In this document: positions 16,103-38,135 of the stretch, piece by piece
Position numbering within the stretch: the stretch's first letter is position 1
Layout: each line of letters begins with the position of its first letter
Assembly: GCA_021781955.1 (NCBI GenBank)
Contig: JAJXVV010000003.1
Location: 27,933 to 91,932 of the forward strand
Direction: 5' to 3'
Length of the DNA stretch: 64,000 bases
Source of the DNA: a bacterium
GTDB taxonomy: Bacteria; Patescibacteriota; Minisyncoccia; Phycocordibacterales; UBA2100
Made by a program: the position numbers and the translations under genes
Notes under the pieces: model-generated
Told to the model about the DNA's origin: nothing
Database searches by the model: none
The model's input: the letters and a program-made list of their open reading frames with translations, nothing else

Positions 16103-17152
16103 ATGAGGGCAACCCTATTCAAAGGACCGCGTCGCGTTGAACTCGGCGAACGTCCTGACCCCGTTATCAAAGAGCCGACCGACGCCATCGTGCGCGTGGT
16201 CATGGGATGCGTTTGTGGTTCTGATCTCTGGTACTACCGCGGCATCAATCCGCACAAGGAAGGCAGTATCGGGCACGAATTCATCGGCATCGTCGAGAAA
16301 ATCGGCGATGACGTGAAAGATACCAAGGTCGGCGATTTGGTCATCGCACCGTTCGATTACAGCGACGGCACCTGTGCCAACTGCAAAGCCGGCTACACCT
16401 TCGAGTGCCCACACGGCGGCGCGTTCGGCAATGGCGATACCGATGGCGGTCAGGGCGAGTACGTGCGCGCTCCATATGCAGACGTCAATCTCGTGAAAGT
16501 GCCGAAAGGTGAATATACAGAAGACCAGCTCGCGTCGTTCCTCGCGCTCTCGGACGTCATGTGCACCGGCTTTCATGCTGCGTCGAGCGCTGGGGTAAAG
16601 AAAGGAGACGTGGTGGCCGTTGTCGGCGACGGCGCAGTGGGTCTGTCCGGTATCATCGCGGCAAAGCTAAAGGGCGCATCGCGCATCATCGCGCTCTCCC
16701 GTAATCCAGCGCGCCAAAAGCTCGCCAAAGAGTTTGGGGCGACCGACATCGTGCCGGAGCGCGGCGAGGAAGCAGTGGCTGCGGTTATGAAGCTGACCGA
16801 TGGCGTTGGCGTGAACGCCGCGCTCGAATGCGTTGGCACTAAAGAAGCGCTCGAAACCGCGGCGAATGTCACGCGCGCGGGCGGCATGGTCGGCGCGGTC
16901 GGTGTTCCCACCTACGGCACGATCGAGTACGCCAAAATGTTTTTCTGGCGCAACATCGGCATCAAGGGCGGCGTCGCTCCGGCGCGCACTTACATCCCGG
17001 AGCTTCTTAAAGCGGTACTCAATGGGCGTATCAATCCAGGCCGTGTCTTCGACCTGCGCACTGACCTTGATAATGTCGCGGAGGCGTACGCCGCGATGGA
17101 CGAGCGCCGCGCTATCAAGTCGCTCCTTAAGGTGAGCGAGATTAATCGCTAG
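16103..17152 (+). CDS. Zn-dependent alcohol dehydrogenase (MDR family)
   Basis: GHEFIGIV, structural-Zn Cys cluster (C..C..C, CANCKAGYTFEC), GDGAVG Rossmann motif. Confidence 0.8.
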   Translation: MRATLFKGPRRVELGERPDPVIKEPTDAIVRVVMGCVCGSDLWYYRGINPHKEGSIGHEFIGIVEKIGDDVKDTKVGDLVIAPFDYSDGTCANCKAGYTFECPHGGAFGNGDTDGGQGEYVRAPYADVNLVKVPKGEYTEDQLASFLALSDVMCTGFHAASSAGVKKGDVVAVVGDGAVGLSGIIAAKLKGASRIIALSRNPARQKLAKEFGATDIVPERGEEAVAAVMKLTDGVGVNAALECVGTKEALETAANVTRAGGMVGAVGVPTYGTIEYAKMFFWRNIGIKGGVAPARTYIPELLKAVLNGRINPGRVFDLRTDLDNVAEAYAAMDERRAIKSLLKVSEINR

Positions 17153-17240
17153 CCAGAAGCGATCGCTCGCTTACCATCGTAAAAAGTTCGGGCGCCCCTT
17201 AGCCCTCGATTTTCGCGATTTTCAAAAAACGAAGTGAAGC

Positions 17241-17270
17241 GGTCGCATTACACCGTCTCACGTTCCTGCG
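17241..17270. repeat. direct repeat copy A (putative att-like site)
   Basis: ggtcgcattacaccgtctcacgttcctgcg matches 37812-37841 ggtcgcgaaacacggtctcacgttcctgcg at 26/30 positions, including a perfect 16-mer. Confidence 0.6.
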
Positions 17271-17689
17271 TGTGCCCAGACACTCAGACCGCCCGCATCG
17301 CCTCGGAGGCGAACGCACCAGCACACCCAGATACTTTTTGTCAAGGGCGCAGCTCTACGCTGTTCTTAGAACCTATTTTAGCAAAAATCAGGGCTGATCT
17401 GCCTAGTCATACAGGTAGTCATTCGGGGTGGCGCGGAATGACTACCCTCCGAATCTGGAAAAGGCACTGGCATCTTCGGCTCCAACCTGTATTTATCTGC
17501 GCGCGAAGCGCGCGGAGTAACTAAACCACAATGGGCTGCGCTGTGCGCAGCCAAAAATAATTTCCCTTTAGTTCCTATTGCGGTGAGGGTCGGTCTAGAA
17601 CCAACCTGTTTCAAGCATTGTAAGGGTTCTTTGGCGAGTTTGCGACCTGCCGATTTTAGGGGGAACGGTCGCTGAGAATGTTACAAACG

Positions 17690-18445
17690 TTACAACTTTT
17701 TGCGTAGTTTCTTGCGGGCCTCCCGCTTAGCCCTCCGATCCTCCCGTTGTCGCTTTTCTTCCTCTTCTCGCGCTTTCATCTCCTCAGGAGGAATGATGCG
17801 TAGATGGTCCATGATTTTGTAACCCTTGAGGGTCTCGCGCGGATCACCGAAGCAATACCACTCGTATGACCGATACCATGTCTGCCCATCGCGATCTTCC
17901 TTCACCAACTGAGATTCAACCAATTTCTTGGGCGGCAAGGTACCCTCGTTGTCCTTGATAAGGAACAGCCGTGCGTGTACGCGTCCCGCACCATCCGTCA
18001 CAGTGCGCGCCTTCAGTACTCCTTCTTTGATCCATCGTGTGACATCTGAGTGCTTCAGGTTGAATGCGCGCTGAAGTTCGTGTTCCCTGTAGTAACTCTT
18101 CTCGCGTTTCGCGAGAGACCCCGGGATTTCTTTTCGATCGACAGCTCCGTGGCACGTAAGGCAGGTGACGCCCCATTTGTCGTACCAGCTTCCTTCTTCC
18201 CGCGAACTCTCGTGGCAAATAGCGCACGTGCGACCACGGCCCTCAAGGACAAATCCTTTGGGAGACTCTTGGAGACGCTTCTTCCATCCTTGTTCCTTCA
18301 CCCAGAGCTCGTACAGAATCTCAGCCAACCCCGCCAGATTGCGCGAAGCTTCTTCCGCCTCCTCCCAGGTAACTTCCTTGCCCTCGCGCTTCTCGAGAAG
18401 CTCTTTCATTTTCTGAATGTGTTTTTTGTGTTCCTCCGCATCCAT
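17690..18445 (-). CDS. hypothetical protein with C-x2-C...C-x2-C zinc-ribbon-like motif and a lysine/arginine-rich C-terminal tail
   Basis: CAICH-x17-CLTCH. No signal peptide. Start at the MDAEEHKK Met (cat at 18443-18445). Confidence 0.5.
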   Translation of the reverse strand: MDAEEHKKHIQKMKELLEKREGKEVTWEEAEEASRNLAGLAEILYELWVKEQGWKKRLQESPKGFVLEGRGRTCAICHESSREEGSWYDKWGVTCLTCHGAVDRKEIPGSLAKREKSYYREHELQRAFNLKHSDVTRWIKEGVLKARTVTDGAGRVHARLFLIKDNEGTLPPKKLVESQLVKEDRDGQTWYRSYEWYCFGDPRETLKGYKIMDHLRIIPPEEMKAREEEEKRQREDRRAKREARKKLRKKL

Positions 18446-18870
18446 ACCTATATTCTGCCGAACTCGCGCAGCGAACGCTAACGGACGCGAGCGCTTGCAA
18501 ACGACGACAAACTGTTGTGTTATCCACAGCTCCCTCTTCCTGTCCAAAGACAATCTCCCCGGAATCCGTATGATGGAAGTACGCAGCTTACCGCGCGCCC
18601 TCACGAAGGGCCCGTAGGAAAGCGACGAGGCTGCAGGGCGCTACAGCCGCTGAGCAGAACCCTGCTCAGGCAAGGTGCGTAACACCGAAGACAGCGCTTC
18701 GGCCCTATCTTCAGACTCTGCGCTCCTTGGCCCTGATTCTCGGTCTCACGAAGACTCAGAATCCCAGAAAACAAAAACACGATTATTCACCGCGAGCGGT
18801 TCGCCGCTCTCGAATTAAGTGCTTTTGTTTGCGTGGGATTTTTTCTCGTGCACGCAAAGGCCTATGCACA

Positions 18871-20214
18871 ATGACCAATCAAGAATTGAAGATTACGTAT
18901 GTCCCCATTGAGACCCTTAAACACCCTGAACGGAATCCTCGCTTCTGGAGCAACGAGGTAAAGCTCCAGCTCAAAGAGAGCGTCACAAGACACGGGGTTG
19001 TCGACCCATTAATCATCAATACCGCGCCCGGCCGGGAGAACATCTGCATTGGTGGGAACTTGCGGTTGGAGGTCCTCAAAGAGCTCGGCCATAAAACAGT
19101 GCCGGTCGTCTCACTCTCCATCACCGACCCGAACAAGGAGCAGGAGCTCATATTGCGGTTGAATCGCAATGTCGCGGAGTTCGACGCGACGCTCCTCAGT
19201 GAGTTCGACGAGGCGTTCCTCAAAGACATCGGATTTTCGTCGGAAGAATTGGATGAGGTGTTTGAGGTCGAGAAAGACGAAGAACAATTCGACCTCGAAA
19301 AGGAATTAGACAAGCTCCAGATAGATCAGATCACCGTAGAGAAAGGAGACGTGTACGACCTCGATGGGTCACGTCTTAAATGCGGCGACTCTACTGTGGA
19401 GGCTGACGTGCTGGACCTAATGCGCGGAGAAAAAGCGGACATGTGCATGACCGACATGCCGTACCGCCTCAGTTACCTGAAGGGCAAAACGCGCAAAGGA
19501 AACCCAACGGTCGGCTTCGGTGCAAAAAGAAACCGCCGGTACCTCGAGACCGAGGCGCTGCCACCGGACTTCGTTGAGAAGTGGATGGGTAATGTTGCCA
19601 AGGTCGCTAACAAGGACTTTTCCATCATTTCCTACGAAAACTGGCGCAACATCCGCGAACAGTGGGACGTGATGGAGAAGCAAGGATGGAAGGTCCGCAA
19701 CATGATCGTCTGGCACCTCCCCACGAGGAACCAGGGCTATGCCGGCAAAAATATCTTGTTCTCGAAGCATGACATCGCGATGGTCGGCACGAGCGAAGCA
19801 CACAGCGGTCTCAACCTTGAGCCCGAGGACGGACTCTATGAGAACCAGTACGAAACTGCTCTCTTCGCGATCCAGGGTAAAGGTTCCCACTGGGAAAACT
19901 ACGGCAAAAACAAGAAGTACTGCCCGACGGATTTCATCGAGTTCAACGCAGCTGACGAGAAGTCTTCCGGGCAAGCGATCATCTACGGCGTAAAGCCGAT
20001 TGAGATCCTCCTGCCCTACATCAAAACGCTCACCAAGCGCGGTCAGCTCATCATTGAGCCCTTTGCGGGATCGGGTTCCACATTAATTGGAGCGAATACA
20101 CTTGGTCGCCGGTGCTTCGCGATGGAAAAAGTACCGACCTATGCCGAGGTCATCCTCAACCGATGGGAAAAGTTCTCTGGGAAGAAACGCGTAAAGATCC
20201 ATGCACAAGCGTGA
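18871..20214 (+). CDS. ParB-like nuclease domain / DNA methyltransferase fusion (beta-class N6A/N4C MTase)
   Basis: N-terminal ParB/Srx-like region (KITYVPIETLKHPERNPRFW...VVDPLIIN). Then DMPY (motif IV variant of DPPY) precedes the FAGSGST AdoMet-binding motif I, which is beta-class order. Common in phages and plasmids. Confidence 0.7.
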   Translation: MTNQELKITYVPIETLKHPERNPRFWSNEVKLQLKESVTRHGVVDPLIINTAPGRENICIGGNLRLEVLKELGHKTVPVVSLSITDPNKEQELILRLNRNVAEFDATLLSEFDEAFLKDIGFSSEELDEVFEVEKDEEQFDLEKELDKLQIDQITVEKGDVYDLDGSRLKCGDSTVEADVLDLMRGEKADMCMTDMPYRLSYLKGKTRKGNPTVGFGAKRNRRYLETEALPPDFVEKWMGNVAKVANKDFSIISYENWRNIREQWDVMEKQGWKVRNMIVWHLPTRNQGYAGKNILFSKHDIAMVGTSEAHSGLNLEPEDGLYENQYETALFAIQGKGSHWENYGKNKKYCPTDFIEFNAADEKSSGQAIIYGVKPIEILLPYIKTLTKRGQLIIEPFAGSGSTLIGANTLGRRCFAMEKVPTYAEVILNRWEKFSGKKRVKIHAQA

Positions 20215-21973: not shown

Positions 21974-22192
21974 ATGGGAAAGAGCATCCATACCAAGGAG
22001 TACAAGGTTTTTGTAGAGCGCCTGAAGAAGGCCCGGATTGAGGCTGGCCTGACTCAAGTGCAAGCAGCAAAGAAACTAGGCCGCCCGCAGTCGCACATTT
22101 CGAATGTTGAGACTGGCCAGCAGCGCGTGGATATAGTGGAGCTTAAGCGGTTTGCGAAGCTCTACGGGAAGAGTATCGAGTACTTCCTCTAA
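21974..22192 (+). CDS. XRE-family HTH transcriptional regulator (Cro/CI-like)
   Basis: 72 aa. HTH LTQVQAAKKLGRPQSHISNVETGQ. Confidence 0.7.
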   Translation: MGKSIHTKEYKVFVERLKKARIEAGLTQVQAAKKLGRPQSHISNVETGQQRVDIVELKRFAKLYGKSIEYFL

Positions 22193-22968
22193 AAACTTTC
22201 GGAATCAACGGCGAGCCCGATCTGCCTTCCAATTGGCTTTATTAGCTTCTCTTCCAAGAGAGGAAAGTAGCTTGGCATAAATCGAAAAAGGCCAACCTTA
22301 GGGTATCGAGCTTCAATCGTGCTCGAAAAGAAAGAGGCGGAGAGATCGTCGATAATGTATTCAAGATCCGGATCTAGCAGCACCTTCTCGACATCGAGTC
22401 TGCGGCAATGGTCGTAGAATTTTTTGTACTCGTGTCGGTATCTCTTCACTGTCTCAATAACCTTTAGCGGATCTTCCAGCTCTTTGAATAGGATGAACGA
22501 CGTAAGCAGCGATTCTATTCCCTGGGTTAAGAGAATTTCATACCGCCCGCTGTCTTCCTTCTTATGATACAGAAATTTCGCGGAATCGATACAGTCTCTT
22601 CCGGTCGTATAAAAAGAAACGACGAGATCATCACGCCTATTTTGCGTAAGGACTGTCTCGAGGAATTCATCGATTCCAATGTCAGCTTCTCCCTTTCGTC
22701 GACGAGGATAGAACGTCGAGAGTTGGTCATCGCGATACACCAAAAGATGTGGGTAAAGAATGCCGCTCCCTGTCTGCCGTATCTGAATCTTAGCCAGTAT
22801 CGATTCTTTTAAGAGCTCATCTTTTATCTTTTGCGCATGATCAGATTCGGATATGATCTCAGTCTCAGTTCTAATGGGTAAACTACTCTTTTCAATGTCA
22901 TCTAAGAGAGCCAGCGTCTTGGATACGTCGTCGTGGGGGTTATAAATCAAGCGGAATACTATTCTCAT
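22189..22968 (-). CDS. hypothetical protein, compositionally foreign (AT-rich)
   Basis: 259-aa ORF spanning a marked local GC drop (visibly A/T-rich codons against an otherwise ~60% GC background). No motif recognised. Convergent with and overlapping the XRE gene by 4 nt. Confidence 0.5.
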   Translation of the reverse strand: MRIVFRLIYNPHDDVSKTLALLDDIEKSSLPIRTETEIISESDHAQKIKDELLKESILAKIQIRQTGSGILYPHLLVYRDDQLSTFYPRRRKGEADIGIDEFLETVLTQNRRDDLVVSFYTTGRDCIDSAKFLYHKKEDSGRYEILLTQGIESLLTSFILFKELEDPLKVIETVKRYRHEYKKFYDHCRRLDVEKVLLDPDLEYIIDDLSASFFSSTIEARYPKVGLFRFMPSYFPLLEEKLIKPIGRQIGLAVDSESF

Positions 22969-23043: not shown

Positions 23044-23829
23044 TCACACCACATGCGAGCGATCCACATCTATTCGAGTCGCTGCAAGGTACCAGATAAA
23101 CCCAACGAGCAGCACGGTGAGGACCAGACTGACTGTGCCATCGCCGAATCCAAGACCGCTGACGCTCGGTGCCTTGCCGAACCAGTCTGCAAACGAAGCA
23201 CCTAATGGGCGTGTGAGAATGTACGCGAGCCAGAATGCGAGCACAGCGTTGCGAGTCAGGTGCTCGTGGTGCTCGGAGAGCCAGCCCTTTGCGGCATAGT
23301 GGAAGATAGCGATGAGCGCGATAAGCCCGGCAAAAAGTAATCCTGCAGAGAGAAAGCCGAGGTTGAGGGTGAACGCCATCATGTCGCCCCATGCGGTGCC
23401 GAGCGCGAAGGTCGCGCACACGGTGAGCCAGTAGAATATTTCCCTTCGCCGCGTCGTAATGCTGTGAATGGATAGCGTCTTTTCAACCGCGTACCAGAGG
23501 ATAAAAATAACGACGAGCGACACGGCGAAGAATATGGTCGTGTAGAGGTACGGAATACCGATGACGATATGGAGGACATCTGCCCCCATCGTGCCGAATA
23601 CGGCAACCATGGTGACCGCGAGCCAGTACACCCACGCGTTGTATCGTGGCCACCAGAATTGGAGTGTGAGCGCAGCCGCGAATGCAAGCGCACCGATACC
23701 GACTGCGACGTACGGGTTGATGGAGTACACGAGGTAGTCGGACGCACTCTCACCGAGCGCGGTGGTAAGGAGTTTGACGATCCAGAAAAACGCCGTGATC
23801 TGGGGAACTTTTCGCAAACCCTGCCGCAT
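23044..23829 (-). CDS. polytopic membrane protein, paralog 1 (uncharacterised family)
   Basis: Shares FWI(V/I)K(L/I)L, AFWLAYI(L/M)TRPLGAS and other blocks with the upstream gene. Start at MRQGLRK is 1 nt after the upstream stop. Confidence 0.6.
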   Translation of the reverse strand: MRQGLRKVPQITAFFWIVKLLTTALGESASDYLVYSINPYVAVGIGALAFAAALTLQFWWPRYNAWVYWLAVTMVAVFGTMGADVLHIVIGIPYLYTTIFFAVSLVVIFILWYAVEKTLSIHSITTRRREIFYWLTVCATFALGTAWGDMMAFTLNLGFLSAGLLFAGLIALIAIFHYAAKGWLSEHHEHLTRNAVLAFWLAYILTRPLGASFADWFGKAPSVSGLGFGDGTVSLVLTVLLVGFIWYLAATRIDVDRSHVV

Positions 23830-23830
23830 A

Positions 23831-24685
23831 TCACTCTGGCATCGGAACGTGCTCCCTGCGCTGTTCCTCAATATCATCTTTGACGGTCTCAGCCGTGATC
23901 ACGTCACGCTTCGTCAGCGTCAGGAAGATGACGAGTGCGAGAATGGCGCCGAGGAAAATAAAACTCGTCATCGTCGTGCCAAGACCTAAGCCACCATCAC
24001 TTTGTGCTTGAGATAGATAATCGCCAATCGAGGCTCCGAGAGGGCGCGTCATGATGTACGCGAGCCAGAACGCAAGAACCGCATTCGAGGACACGTGCCG
24101 ATGCTCAATGCCCAGGACTGCTTTGAAGATGTAATGGGCCGCAGTAATAGCAGCGATAACGCCAGCAAAGATGAGGAGCGCCGTAAGGTACCCTAGGTTG
24201 AATTTCTCAGCTACCAGGTCGCCCGCCGCAGTGCCGAGCGCAAAAGTAAAGAGAATCGTGAGCCAGTAAAACGCCTCGCGACGCTTCGAGAAAATTGTGT
24301 GGATAGAGAGCGTCTTCTCGAACGCGAACCAGACCGCGAACGTGATCGCGAGGAGAATCGCGAACACCGTGGTGGTGGTCGTGAGCGACACGCCGAGATT
24401 GTCGGTGAGGTTGTCTGTGATGAGCGTGCCGACAACGCTGATAAATACGACGGCAAGCCAGTAGATTGAGGGAACGTACCTTTTCGCTCGGAACTGGAAG
24501 AAGAGAATGACGATGAGGATGGCCCCCATTACCAAGCTCGTGCCGTTGAGCCCAAAGCCAAGCGTCGTATTCAAATAATCGGCCGCGGTCTCGCCCACGG
24601 TCGTGCAAAGAATTTTTATGATCCAAAAGTACAGCGTTACTTCCGGAACCTTATTGAGCATTTGTTGCCATTTTGACGGCCCCAT
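23831..24685 (-). CDS. polytopic membrane protein, paralog 2 (uncharacterised family)
   Basis: Tandem duplicate of the downstream gene. The start is uncertain (Met at 24685 or 24661). An AT-rich promoter-like region lies upstream at 24700-24780. Confidence 0.55.
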   Translation of the reverse strand: MGPSKWQQMLNKVPEVTLYFWIIKILCTTVGETAADYLNTTLGFGLNGTSLVMGAILIVILFFQFRAKRYVPSIYWLAVVFISVVGTLITDNLTDNLGVSLTTTTTVFAILLAITFAVWFAFEKTLSIHTIFSKRREAFYWLTILFTFALGTAAGDLVAEKFNLGYLTALLIFAGVIAAITAAHYIFKAVLGIEHRHVSSNAVLAFWLAYIMTRPLGASIGDYLSQAQSDGGLGLGTTMTSFIFLGAILALVIFLTLTKRDVITAETVKDDIEEQRREHVPMPE

Positions 24686-24904
24686 GGCGCTCGGCTGTTT
24701 AGGATTCGCACTCGTTACTGCTGGCATATGGTTAGGGATAGTAATGCATTTTAGGAATAATTGTAAGGCGGTGCACCGAGGGGTCAGTCGATGCACCGCT
24801 TTACGCACTCGCCGCAAATATCTCAAGCGGCTAAGCAAAGAGGACGGAAGTCCTCACTGGTAAGAATCTCTCATGGACTGTAAAGATTTTGTAAAGCGCG
24901 TCCA

Positions 24905-32551: not shown

Positions 32552-33721
32552 ATGCGAGAAAAGTTTTTCGGTCTTCCTAGGAATATTTTCCTACTCGGCC
32601 TCACGAGTCTCTTCAACGACTTCTCGTCTGAGATGGTGTTTTCGATCTTTCCCGCGTTCTTCATCTCGGCGCTCCACGCAGGAGCGGCATCGCTCGGGCT
32701 GGTGGACGGCATCGCCGAGGCGACATCCAACCTCTTCAAAATCTACTCGGGCAGTCTCTCAGACAGGCTTGGGCGTCGCAAACCGCTCGTAATCTCGGGC
32801 TACGCGCTCTCGGTCGTGACGCGGCCTTTCTACATACTCGTTTCGACGGTCAGCGGCGTACTCGGCTTGCGCGTTATCGACCGCCTCGGTAAGGGGTTGC
32901 GCACGGCTCCACGCGACGCCATCATTTCGCTCTCGTCGGAGAAGAACGAGCTCGGCCGCTCGTTCGGCTTTCACCGCGCCATGGACACGACGGGGGCGAT
33001 ACTCGGGCCCTTGGTCGCGTACCTCATCCTGCGGACGTTCCCGCTCCAGTTCAACTACGTATTCCTTACTGCGTTCGGCGTCGGCTTGCTCACGCTTCTC
33101 ACGCTAGCATTCATCTCGGATGTTGCCACGCATGGCAACGCGCAACGCGCCCAACTCTTGGCGTCGTTCAAAGAACTCTCTCCGCGCTTCAAGCTTTTTC
33201 TCCTCGCCGTGTTCGTACTCTCGGCCGGAAGCCTGCCGGTCGCGGTGGTGCTTCTCAAGACAGCGTCACTCGGCCTTGCAGTCGCCGACATTCCACTCTT
33301 TTTTGCCGTGTATAGCATCTCCTATGCGATCTTCTCCATACCGGCCGGAAGGCTCTCCGATCATGTCGGGGCACGCACCGTCATCTTCGTCGGCTATCTT
33401 GTCCTCATCGCCAGCTATGCTGTGCTCAATTTCGCATACGGCGCGTGGACGCTCGCCATTGCCTTTCTCGTGTTCGGCCTATTTCCCGCGCTCACGGACG
33501 GCGTGCAGCGTTCTCTTGCTGCACGGCTCACGGGCGAGACTGTTCGCGGCGGCGGTTTGGGATGGCTCAATGCATCGGTCGGGTTTGGCGCACTTCTTGC
33601 GGGCATAGCGGGAGGATATTTATGGCAGACATACAGCCCGACAACCGCATTTTTCACTGGTGGCATTGTTGTGATGTTTGGACTCCTGCTTCTCCTCGTT
33701 TCAGGAAGCCAGAAGGGCTAG
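32552..33721 (+). CDS. MFS transporter
   Basis: 12-TM MFS topology with a DRLGRRKP-type motif between TM2 and TM3. Confidence 0.7.
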   Translation: MREKFFGLPRNIFLLGLTSLFNDFSSEMVFSIFPAFFISALHAGAASLGLVDGIAEATSNLFKIYSGSLSDRLGRRKPLVISGYALSVVTRPFYILVSTVSGVLGLRVIDRLGKGLRTAPRDAIISLSSEKNELGRSFGFHRAMDTTGAILGPLVAYLILRTFPLQFNYVFLTAFGVGLLTLLTLAFISDVATHGNAQRAQLLASFKELSPRFKLFLLAVFVLSAGSLPVAVVLLKTASLGLAVADIPLFFAVYSISYAIFSIPAGRLSDHVGARTVIFVGYLVLIASYAVLNFAYGAWTLAIAFLVFGLFPALTDGVQRSLAARLTGETVRGGGLGWLNASVGFGALLAGIAGGYLWQTYSPTTAFFTGGIVVMFGLLLLLVSGSQKG

Positions 33722-33781
33722 AAGTTACCAACTCCGAGGAGGAACGGATGCTCTGGACTCCTTCACTAAAGGCGTCATTCC

Positions 33782-35119
33782 TTGGGGTGTATGGACACCA
33801 TTACGAGGGCACCCCTGGGCGGTATTAGCAGGCAGGCCGTACAAGCGCCCGTAAGGATCAAATACTGCCTGTATGCAAGAAAGAGCACCGAGAGTGAGGA
33901 GCGGCAGGTGCTTTCGATAGATAGCCAGATCAAGGAGATGCTCCAGCTGGCCGACCGAGAAGGGCTTGAGGTAGTGGAGATGAAGCGCGAGTCTCACTCG
34001 GCAAAGGAAACTGGCAAGCGGCCGGTATTCAATGAGATCGTCGACGAGCTCCGGGCTGGCAAGTATAACGGTATCCTCACCTGGGCACCGGATCGTATCA
34101 GCCGTAACGCCGGGGACCTTGGCAAGATTGTCGACCTCATGGATGCGGGAGCATTGATGGAGATTCGCACATACGGTCAGAGTTTCAAGAATAATCCGAA
34201 TGAGAAGTTCCTTCTCATGATTCTCGGCTCGCAAGCCAAACTCGAGAACGACAATCGCGGAGTGAACGTGAAGCGCGGGTTGCGGACGCGCTGCGAGATG
34301 GGTTTGCGGCCGGGCGTAGCACCGGTCGGCTACAACAACGAGAAGCATGCTGACAAGAAGTGCCACGCAATCGTTGATCCGGCGCGCGCGCCGATCGTGA
34401 AGCAGATGTTTGAGAAAGTCGCCAACGAGAAGTGGAGCGGCAGGCGCATACACCAGTGGCTCAAGTTCGAGCTCAACTTCAAGAGTCGGGGCAACAAGAA
34501 CATGACGCTTAGCAGCGTGTACGTAGTACTCCAGAACCACTTCTACTACGGCATGTTTGAGTACCCGGTAAACAGCGGGAATTGGTACGAGGGCAGACAC
34601 CAGCCGCTCATCACCAAAGAATTGTTCGACAAGACGCAAGAGCAACTCAAGCGCGACCGGATCGTGCGCTCCGACATTAAGGAATTTGCCTTCACCAAGC
34701 TTATGGTATGCGGCCTGTGTGGCTCCGGCATCTCCGCTGACGAGAAGTTTAAGAAGCTCAAGGATGGAACCTCTAACCGCTATGTGTACTACGGCTGCAC
34801 CCGAGCGCGGGACAAGAGCTGTAAGGGCGGCTACGTGCGCGAGGAGGCGCTCATCGAGCAGATGGTGAAAGTGATGGACAAGGTCGATTTCAACAAGATG
34901 GCCATGCGTGACAAGTTCGAGGCCGAGGTAGAGCGCATGCGGAAGTTCCAGCGTGCATTCACTGGCGGAGATGATGCCAAACCACGGAAGGACATAGATC
35001 TGTGCGACTACGCGAAGTACCTGCTCAAGGAAGGCAGCGTTACGGAAAAACGAGAGCTGCTACTTTGCATCAAAAGCAAGCTGGTGCTTACCAGAAGCGA
35101 ATTGAAACTCGAAAACTAG
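33782..35119 (+). CDS. large serine recombinase (resolvase/integrase family)
   Basis: N-terminal resolvase domain with nucleophile context YARKSTESEE and a conserved GILTWAPDRISRN block, then a recombinase domain and a zinc-ribbon (CGLCGS...YYGC...C). About 445 aa. Confidence 0.8.
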   Translation: MGCMDTITRAPLGGISRQAVQAPVRIKYCLYARKSTESEERQVLSIDSQIKEMLQLADREGLEVVEMKRESHSAKETGKRPVFNEIVDELRAGKYNGILTWAPDRISRNAGDLGKIVDLMDAGALMEIRTYGQSFKNNPNEKFLLMILGSQAKLENDNRGVNVKRGLRTRCEMGLRPGVAPVGYNNEKHADKKCHAIVDPARAPIVKQMFEKVANEKWSGRRIHQWLKFELNFKSRGNKNMTLSSVYVVLQNHFYYGMFEYPVNSGNWYEGRHQPLITKELFDKTQEQLKRDRIVRSDIKEFAFTKLMVCGLCGSGISADEKFKKLKDGTSNRYVYYGCTRARDKSCKGGYVREEALIEQMVKVMDKVDFNKMAMRDKFEAEVERMRKFQRAFTGGDDAKPRKDIDLCDYAKYLLKEGSVTEKRELLLCIKSKLVLTRSELKLEN

Positions 35120-36052
35120 TTATCTAGAATCGAGGTCTCGCGTCTCGCCATTTATGTAATCAGGAATATCTCGGTTCTTTTCACTGATGATCCTTTCCAT
35201 CTCATCAATTTGACGAATTGTGGGTTTATCGTCGTGACGCATAGCAATTTGACGTCCTTTTGCAAGATATCGTTTTGCTGCTCGGAATCGATATGCAGTC
35301 TTCAGATCATTGGCTAAGTTATGGTATGCGATCGCGGCAAGAGGATCATTCAATTCCTCAAACAACGCTGCGGCAACAAGAAAGCTGTCGGTAAATTTCT
35401 TAACATGGGCATTTAATTTGCGGGCATCACCGTTTGAAAGCAGTAACAAATATTCAGGCAGAGGATAACGCATAAATTCGTATCTGCTCCAAAGTTTTGT
35501 TCGCAGACCACCGCGCATGCAAACGACCTTGTATTGTATATAACGAGAACTTTCAATGCTGCCTTTCGCCATTAAAACAAGTGCTTGAATTCTCTTATTT
35601 CCAGTTTGGTTTGCAAGTGAAATAGCATCGGCGAGCGAGCTATCAATCCCGGCTTCGAGTGTCTGCACTTCAGCAGATAATGAGTCAAACTCCTGTTTTT
35701 CAGCTTCGGTCGCAAACTCGACCCATCTTGGCGGGAGTTTTAGCATCGCCATTCGATGGCGACGCAGCACAACCTGATGCATTGACATATCTGCAAGGCG
35801 TCCCAAAAAATGAGCGCGAAGATCCTTTAAATTTAGTGCTGAGGTTATCTTTAACCCTTCTACGAGGAGAGCCAATATTTTCAGATTGTCTTCCACTGGA
35901 GATAGAACACCAATGGCTACATCGATAAATTGAAGGCGGGTGTGAGGATCTTTAATTTGAGGATCCAGCTTTAACAAGTTGGCACGCGCTTGAGTACGCT
36001 TGCCCTCCGACGCCAAAGTAAGCGCTTTTTTAATTTCATCTTTTTGTGACAT
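35120..36052 (-). CDS. hypothetical alpha-helical protein (third gene of HNH/DUF4238-like cassette)
   Basis: 310 aa. Lower GC than its surroundings. Its start overlaps the upstream gene end by 17 nt; its stop abuts the recombinase stop (convergent, 0-nt gap). Confidence 0.5.
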   Translation of the reverse strand: MSQKDEIKKALTLASEGKRTQARANLLKLDPQIKDPHTRLQFIDVAIGVLSPVEDNLKILALLVEGLKITSALNLKDLRAHFLGRLADMSMHQVVLRRHRMAMLKLPPRWVEFATEAEKQEFDSLSAEVQTLEAGIDSSLADAISLANQTGNKRIQALVLMAKGSIESSRYIQYKVVCMRGGLRTKLWSRYEFMRYPLPEYLLLLSNGDARKLNAHVKKFTDSFLVAAALFEELNDPLAAIAYHNLANDLKTAYRFRAAKRYLAKGRQIAMRHDDKPTIRQIDEMERIISEKNRDIPDYINGETRDLDSR

Positions 36053-36962
36053 GGCGATATTGGTACCACAATTTTAATTCATGCCAGCGCATCGAAGCTT
36101 GGTGTCGCAGTATTTTAAGAATAAAGAAAAAGTCCAGCGGATAGCGGCGGTACCAATGGCGACGAGCTCTTGAGCTGTTTGCTATAAAGTATTTATAAGA
36201 ATGCCCCACAGTCATACGGTTCGATTCCTCAACCTCAGTTTTATCCCTGAGTACATACCCCCGTAACGGGCTTCGGCTCATGCAAAGTAATATCTCTGGA
36301 GAAAGTGGAAGATACACCTCGACTCGTTCTTGCCCAAGGTCAGGACCGTAAGCACGCTGCCATTGGAGTTCAGGATTGAATACCTGACAAGGGTCGTCAG
36401 AGGTGATGTATTTTGCGCCCCCATCCGAACAGAGGAAGGCGATGTTCATATCCATGAGCATCATTGCCACATCAGGCAGGAGCTGAACGAAATTCAGCTT
36501 ATGGCCATTTTCCATTTCTTGCTTTAGGCCTTGGCGTTCTTCTGGAGTAACGTCGGGGCTCATTTGTTCCATCAACTGATCGTGAAAGCGCTGCATGTTA
36601 TCCCTGAAGCGTGGCGTACGTTGAAGCATCGCTGCAACGAATACACGTAACGTTATGCGTTCGTCTTCAGTGAGTGGTAATCGCTGACTGATCTTATCTT
36701 TGAAAAGAGCTGCATATTTTCCTTCAAGGGTCGCTAGCGTTTCTTCGATGGAATAGTTTTTCTCGCCAGACTTCAGCTTAAGCGTGTATAGATCCTTTTC
36801 AACGAAAACGTTCGTTATCGAACTTTTACGGCCCTTCTTCTCGCCTTTATTAAAAGTCCAGAGATAGGAGGTCTTTCTAAAAAGGAAGTCCGAAGCGGCC
36901 CACTCTCGTAGGTAGCATTGCGGAACGTAATGTTGTCTGGTTGGACCTTTTGCCACGACCAA
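36036..36962 (-). CDS. DUF4238-like protein (hypothetical)
   Basis: The N-terminus TRQHYVPQCYLREW matches the HYVPQ-YL motif I recall as defining DUF4238. TTG/GTG start with AGGGG about 7 nt upstream. AT-richer than the host background. Confidence 0.5.
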   Translation of the reverse strand: MVVAKGPTRQHYVPQCYLREWAASDFLFRKTSYLWTFNKGEKKGRKSSITNVFVEKDLYTLKLKSGEKNYSIEETLATLEGKYAALFKDKISQRLPLTEDERITLRVFVAAMLQRTPRFRDNMQRFHDQLMEQMSPDVTPEERQGLKQEMENGHKLNFVQLLPDVAMMLMDMNIAFLCSDGGAKYITSDDPCQVFNPELQWQRAYGPDLGQERVEVYLPLSPEILLCMSRSPLRGYVLRDKTEVEESNRMTVGHSYKYFIANSSRARRHWYRRYPLDFFFILKILRHQASMRWHELKLWYQYRHVTKR

Positions 36963-36990
36963 ACGATACCCCTACTTTGTCTTTTCCGCA

Positions 36991-37767
36991 CTAAGGAGCG
37001 AAAGGGTCTAGGGCATCATGATTTGGAGATACGTTCCTTTCGGAAATTCCCAGTGCTGCGCCCTGCGGGACAAGACCCGATGGAAGAACATAGAAACCTG
37101 CACAACCTCTCGCGTCTTGGTCGCGTACCTTACCCAAGTCTTTCCAATCGTAAACATCGAGCGCGAAGAAGCACATCCATGGACCGTTGTTATCCGCCTG
37201 ATTCCAAACACATTCATAGGTAAGATTACCTTTGTTACACTGGACTTTATCGAGATTGTTTTTCGCGCGATTGTCTTTTATAGCTTGAACGAATGCAGCG
37301 TGCTGAGGAAGGATCGGATCGATAACCGGCTTACCATGTACCATGCGCCCGCGAGGAAATGGGGTTACGAGTGCACAGTTATCTCGTATATCGAGCACCG
37401 GTTCTTTGTATAGAGCGGCATGAAAGCCGCTGATCCAGCGCCATACAGCTTCGTCAACATCCAAGTTCGTGAGGGCACCAAGTTGTGGATTTATGACCAG
37501 GCGGCGATGTTTCGGATCCGATGGTTTTTTGCCGTACCGAAGTGCGATAAGCTGGGCAATCTTTTCATCGGTTAAGGTGTGCGCACTGTTGCAAGCTTGG
37601 TGCGTCGGCAAAATCAAGGGATCTTTATGATCCGTTTGGAAGATAGAGTCGGGCGGAACATGATCGCGATTTTTGACATCTCCTGCCGCGAACATTTTCC
37701 CGCACAAATAGCAGAACGGAAGGTTCTGCACTGGGCGACGTTCAGTTTGCGTAATGAGCGAAATCAT
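36991..37767 (-). CDS. HNH-nuclease-domain protein (N-terminal HNH-like motif plus about 190-aa unknown C-terminal domain)
   Basis: C-x2-C ... NRDHVPP ... HQACNSAH follows the HNH pattern (Zn ligands plus catalytic His-Pro). Start at MISLITQ (cat at 37765-37767). The longer ORF-track version (to 38058) reads through tRNA-Ser and is an artefact. Confidence 0.5.
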   Translation of the reverse strand: MISLITQTERRPVQNLPFCYLCGKMFAAGDVKNRDHVPPDSIFQTDHKDPLILPTHQACNSAHTLTDEKIAQLIALRYGKKPSDPKHRRLVINPQLGALTNLDVDEAVWRWISGFHAALYKEPVLDIRDNCALVTPFPRGRMVHGKPVIDPILPQHAAFVQAIKDNRAKNNLDKVQCNKGNLTYECVWNQADNNGPWMCFFALDVYDWKDLGKVRDQDARGCAGFYVLPSGLVPQGAALGISERNVSPNHDALDPFAP

Positions 37768-37811
37768 ATTGAGTCGGACTATTTTACGACGAAAACGCCC
37801 CGACGTGGGAC

Positions 37812-37841
37812 GGTCGCGAAACACGGTCTCACGTTCCTGCG
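37812..37841. repeat. direct repeat copy B (abuts/overlaps by 2 nt the 3' end of tRNA-Ser)
   Basis: See copy A at 17241-17270. Confidence 0.6.
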
Positions 37842-37926
37842 GAGAGGGAGGGATTCGAACCCTCGATACCGTTTCCAGTATGCCGCATTTCGAGTGCGGT
37901 GCCTTCGACCACTCAGCCACCTCTCC
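37840..37926 (-). tRNA. tRNA-Ser (anticodon CGA), long variable arm, no encoded CCA
   Basis: Reverse complement folds as GGAGAGG / D-arm / CCGCA-CTCGAAA-TGCGG / 18-nt variable arm / GAGGG-TTCGAAT-CCCTC / CCTCTCC plus G. Confidence 0.85.
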
Positions 37927-38063
37927 CAGTACCACCCCGAAAGGGGTGGTCCTCCCGCAAAACGCGGGGAAAATGACCTGGCCACCATCAAAATAGCACA
38001 CTTTCGAGCCGTGAAAAAATGCGTTACACTGCAGACGATTCGCGCATGCTGCGAACAAAAGAC

Positions 38064-38135
38064 GGCCCTATCGTCTAGTGGTTAGGACAGCAGCTTTTCA
38101 AGCTGTTAACTCGGGTTCGATTCCCGATAGGGTCA
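38064..38135 (+). tRNA. tRNA-Glu (anticodon TTC), no encoded CCA
   Basis: GGCCCTA acceptor with D-arm GTCT/GGAC, anticodon arm GCAGC-TTTTCAA-GCTGT, T-arm TCGGG-TTCGATT-CCCGA, TAGGGTC plus A. Confidence 0.8.

Follow-up and report, generated by a model that had tools for sequence, protein, structure and literature searches.

Three minus-strand open reading frames (ORFs), called genes 1, 2 and 3 here in 5' to 3' order, form a cassette between tRNA-Ser(cga) and a convergent gene for a large serine recombinase in a bacterial genome of the Patescibacteriota (GenBank: GCA_021781955.1; contig JAJXVV010000003.1, positions 27,933 to 91,932). The whole stretch of 64,000 nucleotides (nt) is referred to as the window. 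We favour, with moderate confidence, the view that the cassette consists of two independent defence-type modules at the tRNA-Ser-proximal tip of a composite island of ~20.6 kb. One of them is gene 1, a probable HNH-like nuclease gene. The other is the pair of genes 2 and 3, which would be a two-gene anti-phage form of DUF4238 with a tetratricopeptide repeat (TPR) protein as partner.

The linkage of genes 2 and 3 is strict. Gene 3 or a homologue was found directly downstream of DUF4238 in all 14 other independent loci examined (among them L006, L010, L011, L012, L022-L026, L030-L032 and L115). The loci recovered with gene 3 come from L006 (a contig from a groundwater metagenome), from four further metagenome contigs and from metagenome-assembled genomes of Sulfurifustaceae, Parcubacteria, Saccharibacteria and Andersenbacteria, and each of them has DUF4238 immediately upstream. 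Searches with DUF4238 alone, the unbiased direction, recovered four loci (L030, L031, L032 and the viral contig L115), and a gene 3 homologue lies downstream in four out of four, at DUF4238 identities of 39-45%. The partner in L115 was seen only by profile (probability 99.7%). A pattern search of IMG/VR with gene 3 gave no match; a profile then detected a divergent copy beside a DUF4238 match. Eight of the 12 loci scored for the overlap between the two genes show 17 nt as in the window (core ATGTCAGAAAAAGATGA), three others show 4, 11 and 23 nt, and in L024, where gene 2 is frameshifted, the second match also fits an overlap. In L115 the overlap is 23 nt. The divergence of gene 2 and that of gene 3 from the window copies are correlated (r=0.85), and the families are comparable in size, with ~120 clusters for the DUF4238 subfamily and 195 representatives for gene 3, almost all of them full length (~300 amino acids, aa).

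By its sequence, gene 2 is unambiguously a DUF4238 protein, as had been proposed from the N-terminal motif HYVPQCYLREW in a first, sequence-only reading of this DNA. A Pfam search gave E=1.8e-43 and 149.4 bits (cut-off 27) for PF14022, with residues 9-264 aligned to profile positions 1-280 of 281. A single DUF4238 protein from a hotspot in P2-like prophages of E. coli confers strong resistance to T7 (Rousset et al. 2022; PMC9122126). Comparison of the gene 2 subfamily profile with the solitary DUF4238 protein of the P2-like phage pro483 gave an hhalign probability of 98.9% over 253 columns at 22% identity; identity to the validated solitary form is 22-26%. Both groups share PF14022 membership, homology over ~250 residues and carriage on mobile elements. 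They also have in common the N-terminal H-[YF]-x-x-Q-C-Y-L, ITSD-[DN]-P and other invariant residues: 36 subfamily members keep Q10, H11, P14, Y17, L18, S188, D189 and P191 with little or no variation, and pro483 has them too. The invariant polar residues of gene 2, which pro483 shares, are H11, N51, D57, E73, E80, R115, S188-D189, N196, S221 and N248.

Differences from the known system concern architecture and the C-terminus. The pro483 gene is solitary, between a replication gene and a portal gene, and a copy on a Sinorhizobium plasmid is likewise solitary, whereas in the subfamily of gene 2, whose ~120 clusters show 39-61% identity, the single-gene arrangement was not found: in the window and in the 14 other independent loci an overlapping TPR gene always comes next. 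Members of this subfamily also carry an extra C-terminal tail of ~45 residues (~265-308; window 36036-36170), hydrophobic and basic (RYPLDFFFILKIL...RHV[RT]KR), that does not align with the pro483 protein. A sequence search of solved structures with gene 2 yielded nothing useful. One paired-subfamily DUF4238 protein (P0206; 46% identity) is labelled as coming from a metagenome-assembled genome of Hodarchaeota, an Asgard archaeon, and this label hints at a spread of the paired subfamily across domains.

Gene 3 encodes an all-helical TPR protein. The sequence-only reading had described an uncharacterised helical protein; the helices are now identified as stacked helix-turn-helix repeats that form a superhelix, and TPR matches at the sequence level stayed below threshold. 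The C-terminal tail NRDIPDYINGETRD (residues ~293-310; window 35120-35160) is one of the best-conserved regions of the family and is predicted to be disordered, with a predicted local distance difference test score (pLDDT) <50. Conservation of a stretch modelled as disordered suggests a docking peptide. TPR proteins of the RRNPP family (Rap, PlcR, NprR, phage Rap) and the TPR sensor arms of Avs/STAND proteins offer a comparison, but gene 3 is without a DNA-binding, phosphatase or nucleoside triphosphatase (NTPase) domain. Unlike them, it has no domain besides the TPR and is coupled to an enzyme-like protein that is separate from it.

We found no published description of a DUF4238-TPR pair. The earlier reading did not recognise the gene combination as a named system; DUF4238 itself is named and present in PADLOC. 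The pair is a new variant of what is already a named single-gene anti-phage system. In a 2024 study of E. coli TIR defence systems, DUF4238 and TPR are among the domains found, and five systems need both of two proteins (PMC11350192). As far as the available part of that text goes, DUF4238 and TPR are not described together in one system, and the cassette of the window differs from those two-protein systems in having no TIR domain.

We argue from the overlap and the co-divergence of the two genes that their products, made from translationally coupled genes, would form a stoichiometric complex. The enzyme-like pattern of invariant polar residues in the DUF4238 protein makes this protein the likely enzymatic effector. 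Its TPR partner would bind a protein or peptide, either to sense a phage component or to keep the effector in check until infection; recognition of a phage protein by the TPR subunit might release or activate the DUF4238 enzyme. The tail NRDIPDYINGETRD of gene 3 and the extra tail of the DUF4238 protein are candidate docking elements. The arrangement would also suit an addiction module, in which DUF4238 would be a toxin and the TPR protein its antidote, stabilising the island and not specifically directed at phages. Compatible with this are the conserved overlap that couples the two genes in translation, their presence next to recombinases on integrative elements and a patchy, horizontally spread distribution (bacteria of the candidate phyla radiation (CPR), Proteobacteria and one viral contig). 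However, a large enzyme encoded first and an equally large partner second, ~310 aa each, would be unusual for a type II toxin-antitoxin system, and the TPR partners of defence systems usually act as sensors. The two explanations overlap, because abortive-infection systems often behave as toxin-antitoxin pairs. We consider a pure addiction role improbable; the sole DUF4238 protein that has been tested acts alone and gives phage resistance (PMC9122126).

Gene 1 is independent of this pair, and its independence also decides against the earlier proposal that the three genes are one system. Such a three-component system, with an HNH nuclease effector, DUF4238 and a helical partner, would agree with the common strand, the gap of 28-34 nt, the 17-nt overlap and the fact that no terminator was predicted between genes 1 and 2 in a terminator scan. 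The trio also occurs again in L006 and, within the reach of the contig, in L029, where gene 1 is 89% and gene 2, over the part on the contig, 92% identical. The window, L029 and L006 are the only places where it was found. These three loci occupy the same orthologous tRNA-Glu/tRNA-Ser(cga) site in related organisms and therefore count as one evolutionary event. A survey of gene 1 homologues covered 80 metagenome loci, 32 of them informative with at least 1 kb of downstream sequence. DUF4238 or gene 3 was near gene 1 in one of the 32, and this one is a copy of L006. Gene 1 is also present without either of them in L014, L020, L028 and L036, and genes 2 and 3 are present without gene 1 in 11 lineages. 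We therefore regard the three-component system as highly improbable.

Defence genes were seen around both modules. Beside the pair, L006 has a type I restriction-modification (R-M) system and a UvrD-like helicase, L012 a methylase and a MutH-like nuclease, L010 a LexA-peptidase-methylase fusion and L032 AbiU2 and methylases; the slot upstream of the pair holds AbiU2 in L032, or something else. Around gene 1, 150 ORFs within 2.6 kb were scanned in ~55 loci. AbiU2 (3) and TIR_2 (2) were the commonest Pfam families, HipA and KAP NTPase were also found, and PADLOC matched PifA, bSEFIR, Lit, mad2/3/8, type I methylases, viperin-like proteins and several PDC candidate families. Housekeeping singletons (DNA polymerase III alpha, MutL, trigger factor) are among the neighbours too. 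In L014 the gene 1 homologue lies beside AbiV and a tyrosine integrase, downstream of tRNA-Thr; in L020 it is near Gabija-like genes, DUF3800, IS66 and ArdC. This fits small islets inserted at many chromosomal sites. The suspected defence or mobile-element character of the cassette is supported by relatives near type I/II R-M, AbiU2, AbiV, TIR, PifA and Lit genes, but not as a property of one unit.

All-against-all clustering of 487 ORFs near gene 1 revealed no recurrent neighbour family, and the genes downstream are unrelated (332 aa in L028, 290 aa in L014). The downstream genes without Pfam match in L014 (290 aa), L019 (281 aa) and L028 (332 aa) were considered as hidden DUF4238 relatives and rejected; those of L014 and L028 have no PADLOC match either. 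A tRNA lies upstream in 7 of ~58 loci, so tRNA adjacency is not convincing as a general trait of gene 1.

The gene 1 protein carries the motif C19-x2-C22 ... D35-H36 ... H56-x2-C59-N60. In 44 homologues (50-89% identity) C22, D35, H36, H56, C59 and N60 are invariant and C19 is kept in at least 90%; the family comprises at least 432 clusters. No Pfam, NCBIfam or PADLOC family was assigned to gene 1. The HNH_5 profile (PF14279) gave 14.1 bits (cut-off 27.5) for gene 1 and was matched by 23 of the 44 members, all below threshold (best E 1.3e-3). Five HNH PHROGs were matched by members of the family (best E 0.0018), with phrog_9645 spanning residues 17-63. The predicted structure (pLDDT 89; predicted template modelling score 0.90) has a strand-strand-helix where the beta-beta-alpha-Me finger is expected. 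The earlier assignment to the HNH type is accordingly upheld for the conserved motif pattern only, as profile scores were below threshold and no HNH structure was matched. Sequence and model together make gene 1 a probable HNH-like nuclease, and the invariant CxxC...DH...HxxCN spacing is what it has in common with HNH and other His-Me finger nucleases, as may be the modelled strand-strand-helix.

Alternatively, gene 1 may be a zinc-finger protein that binds nucleic acid or protein and is not a nuclease, its HNH likeness being a CCHC zinc knuckle. The sub-threshold HNH scores fit this, as does zf-C2HC_2, which was matched by 10 of the 44 members. A comparison of the gene 1 model with the PDB, including its C-terminal domain, gave no structural match and no HNH fold, and the gene 1 profile found nothing useful among PDB sequences (best match a zinc ribbon, E=0.45). 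A plain zinc knuckle would, however, leave the invariance of D35-H36 and N60 beyond the zinc ligands and the modelled strand-strand-helix at the finger positions to be accounted for, and apart from the knuckle profile the named families matched across members, all sub-threshold, are HNH endonucleases (Pfam HNH_5 and HNH; the five PHROGs). We consider the non-nuclease explanation unlikely. As a nuclease, gene 1 would act alone and depend on metal, most likely as a single-gene defence or as a selfish nuclease gene, and its C-terminal domain would supply specificity or regulation.

Several points weigh against two independent modules with an anti-phage pair. Gene 2 reaches 39.6 bits (E=1e-10) on the PADLOC system model DUF4238-Pers, a hidden Markov model, in two matched stretches, the best on model positions 6-122 of 309; about a third of the model is covered and a full-length match was not obtained, whereas the pro483 protein scores 725.5 bits over positions 1-309. 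The molecular function of DUF4238 is given as unknown, also for the validated homologue (PMC9122126). Genes 1 and 2 have the same orientation, the 28-34 nt that separate them contain no predicted terminator, their adjacency is kept in the window, L029 and L006, and some functional coupling of the two in this lineage is conceivable. The neighbour survey is based on crudely called ORFs on short contigs and has no formal background rate. Complex formation, sensor and effector roles, nuclease activity and anti-phage function are all inferred.

The recombinase next to gene 3 is by its sequence an intact three-domain large serine recombinase: Resolvase, Recombinase and Zn_ribbon_recom domains are all above the Pfam cut-offs, and a PHROG integrase matched with E=2e-62. 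Its last base is directly adjacent to the gene 3 stop codon. Related recombinases are convergent with and abut gene 3 in L006 (85% identity, 1-nt gap) and L032 (degraded and split, 2-nt gap); another lies ~1 kb from the pair in L024, and in L028 the cargo is followed by a remnant of 44 aa. The stop-to-stop ends are at 35117-35122 in the window, L006:5156-5158 and L032:4363-4366, with gene 3 being 47-54% identical, and they leave no space for a terminator between the convergent genes.

This proximity raises the alternative that the genes serve the mobile element, gene 1 as a transfer or homing nuclease and genes 2 and 3 as accessory or directionality factors of the recombinase. The abutment at 0-2 nt in three lineages and the remnant found in a fourth could be read in this way, as could the identities between the window and L006 (gene 1 81% and recombinase 85%, genes 2 and 3 59% and 54%). 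A serine recombinase is within the available sequence of eight pair loci, but not in that of L011, L022, L025, L030 and L031, and it was found in only two of the 80 gene 1 loci. Known recombinase directionality factors are small proteins, and gene 1 homologues were absent from IMG/VR, GenBank phages and PLSDB plasmids. A service role for the element is very unlikely. At the nt level, identity between the window and L006 is 70-77% for gene 1, 72-83% for the recombinase and 49-65% for genes 2 and 3, with a step down at the gene boundaries. The lower values of the pair reflect either faster evolution or allele replacement, which saturated synonymous sites cannot separate.

The tight packing of the three genes beside tRNA-Ser and the recombinase, the motifs C-x2-C, NRDHVPP and HQACNSAH of gene 1 and HYVPQCYLREW of gene 2 were all confirmed in the ORFs and translations, at the positions that the sequence-only reading had given (Table 1). 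The ATG of gene 1 at 37767 is backed by homologues, nearly all of which start M-I/V-S-L at the same point. A longer gene 1 ORF from a TTG (to 38058) crosses the tRNA and is spurious. For gene 2, homologues and a 306-aa database copy favour the GTG over the TTG, and the gap to gene 1 is therefore 28 nt (TTG) or 34 nt (GTG). Genes 2 and 3 share 17 nt, at the end of the former and the start of the latter. From the 3' end of tRNA-Ser(cga) to the gene 1 ATG there are 71 nt, which include a terminator-like hairpin with a T-run (37796-37812, minus strand). Only ~30 nt of promoter space remain past this hairpin, and gene 1 may need transcription that reads through from the tRNA to be expressed.

Table 1. 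Features of the cassette and of the island in the window (positions in window coordinates)
Feature	Position	Strand	Description
Gene 1	36991-37767	-	258 aa; stand-alone protein with N-terminal CCHC zinc-braced HNH-like motif and C-terminal alpha/beta domain
Gene 2	36036-36962	-	DUF4238 protein; 308 aa from TTG, more likely 306 aa from GTG at 36956
Gene 3	35120-36052	-	310 aa; all-helical TPR protein, partner of the DUF4238 subfamily of gene 2
Large serine recombinase	33782-35119	+	445 aa; convergent with gene 3, abutting
tRNA-Ser(cga)	37839-37926	-	found by ARAGORN and Rfam; 3' end is the island junction and polymorphic integration point
tRNA-Glu	38064-38135		next tRNA after tRNA-Ser(cga)
41-nt direct repeat, tRNA-proximal copy	37801-37841		attachment (att)-like; starts in the last three tRNA bases and partly overlaps the hairpin at 37796-37812
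41-nt direct repeat, distal copy	17230-17270		followed by a T-run, like the native tRNA flank
Phage-like element, remnant	17579-20214		tRNA-3'-like sequence at 17579-17610; ParB-N6/N4 methyltransferase at 18727-20214

The base composition marks the cassette as foreign, as had been supposed from its low guanine plus cytosine (GC) content. The GC of 35120-37767 is 0.465, compared with 0.610 +/- 0.017 in windows of equal size outside the island, and this is essentially the lowest-GC stretch of its size in the 64 kb. At third codon positions the GC is 0.38 in gene 3, 0.49 in gene 2 and 0.51 in gene 1, compared with 0.74 in the recombinase and 0.7-0.8 in host genes. Composition and the intact recombinase together bear out the suggestion of foreign cargo at a tRNA-linked island.

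The two copies of the 41-nt direct repeat are 80% identical with an exact core of 17 nt and lie 20.6 kb apart, with a GC of ~0.54 between them and ~0.61 outside. The distal copy is probably the original downstream flank of tRNA-Ser, displaced by 20.6 kb, and marks the far end of the island. A search for the tRNA-Ser 3' end itself as an island border found no second copy within 3 mismatches. Comparison of 33690-33800 with the tRNA-proximal junction revealed no att-like direct or inverted repeats above shuffled controls, and a mini-element of 4.1 kb consisting of recombinase and cargo is therefore not delimited. The island is a mosaic of the cassette with its recombinase, MFS (major facilitator superfamily), deacetylase, PAP2, two-component and ABC (ATP-binding cassette) transporter genes, DUF347 paralogues and a decayed phage-like element.

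Other assemblies of the same population have a fuller relative of this phage-like element, with a ParB-methyltransferase, HTH_Tnp_1_2 and a 509-aa protein, lying between tRNA-Ser and gene 1. In contigs that match at 99.9-100% identity across the cassette, ...CCGC/AGGAACGTGAGACC is joined to three different sequences: at ...CCGC/AGGAACG the window has the intact tRNA, L001 and L002 have the end of the fuller phage-like element, and L004 has a third, tRNA-3'-like sequence. The corresponding coordinates are 37839-37861 and 17579-17645 in the window, L001:8149-8230 and L004:1-30. The 3' end of tRNA-Ser is therefore an active, polymorphic integration site, with the cassette on its constant side. 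The tRNA 3' end, the att-like repeat, the intact recombinase, low GC and the junction polymorphism are as in tRNA-linked serine-recombinase defence islands. In contrast to these, the recombinase lies ~2.7 kb inside the tRNA-proximal end, no att half-sites were defined, and the mosaic includes ordinary-looking transporter and two-component genes.

The same site differs in content among the related loci. In L006 tRNA-Ser and gene 1 are separated by a UvrD-like helicase of 550 aa with weak GajB-type matches (L006:811-2463), which lies upstream of gene 1 at a distance of 11 nt, and the type I R-M system follows the recombinase. In L029 an alcohol dehydrogenase gene (L029:6606-7926; 67% nt identity to that of the window) directly adjoins tRNA-Glu/tRNA-Ser. 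The dehydrogenase of the window (16103-17152) lies across the island from the tRNAs (37839-38135), at its far end, and this placement points to an inversion or a different insertion history. Further inside the island, two adjacent genes for DUF347-repeat membrane proteins (23044-24838; 277 and 335 aa), with a diverged direct repeat of 74 nt (23190, 24025), are tandem paralogues. One more gene of foreign appearance is an ORF of 259 aa (22189-22968, minus strand) that has no Pfam or PADLOC match; it lies in the window's kilobase of second lowest GC (45.4%). The window also encodes an RND (resistance-nodulation-division) pump, hydrogenase-4/Mrp-like subunits and valyl-tRNA synthetase, a gene content that does not plainly suggest a CPR genome.

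DUF4238 is catalogued as a single gene without known mechanism. A coupled TPR partner, as a natural candidate for the trigger-binding subunit, gives a mechanistic handle on it. Single-gene models would miss or mislabel the paired subfamily: the match covers only a third of the PADLOC model, and PADLOC has no model for gene 3. Many hosts of the pair belong to the CPR (Patescibacteria), whose phage defence repertoire is poorly known. With more than 430 clusters, a confidently predicted fold without structural relative and a defence-flavoured, partner-free neighbourhood, gene 1 is a reasonable candidate for screening; if it is a nuclease as proposed, it would found a family in which a zinc-braced His-Me nuclease is fused to a domain without solved structural relative. 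We put forward only tentatively, as less likely than not, that DUF4238 and its TPR partner are a distinct, undescribed two-component anti-phage system that serine-recombinase islands have spread among CPR bacteria and Proteobacteria, perhaps to Asgard archaea, and to at least one virus, and that gene 1 is a new single-gene defence family. Overall, the analysis would refine one catalogue entry and add one candidate, and it does not overturn current ideas.

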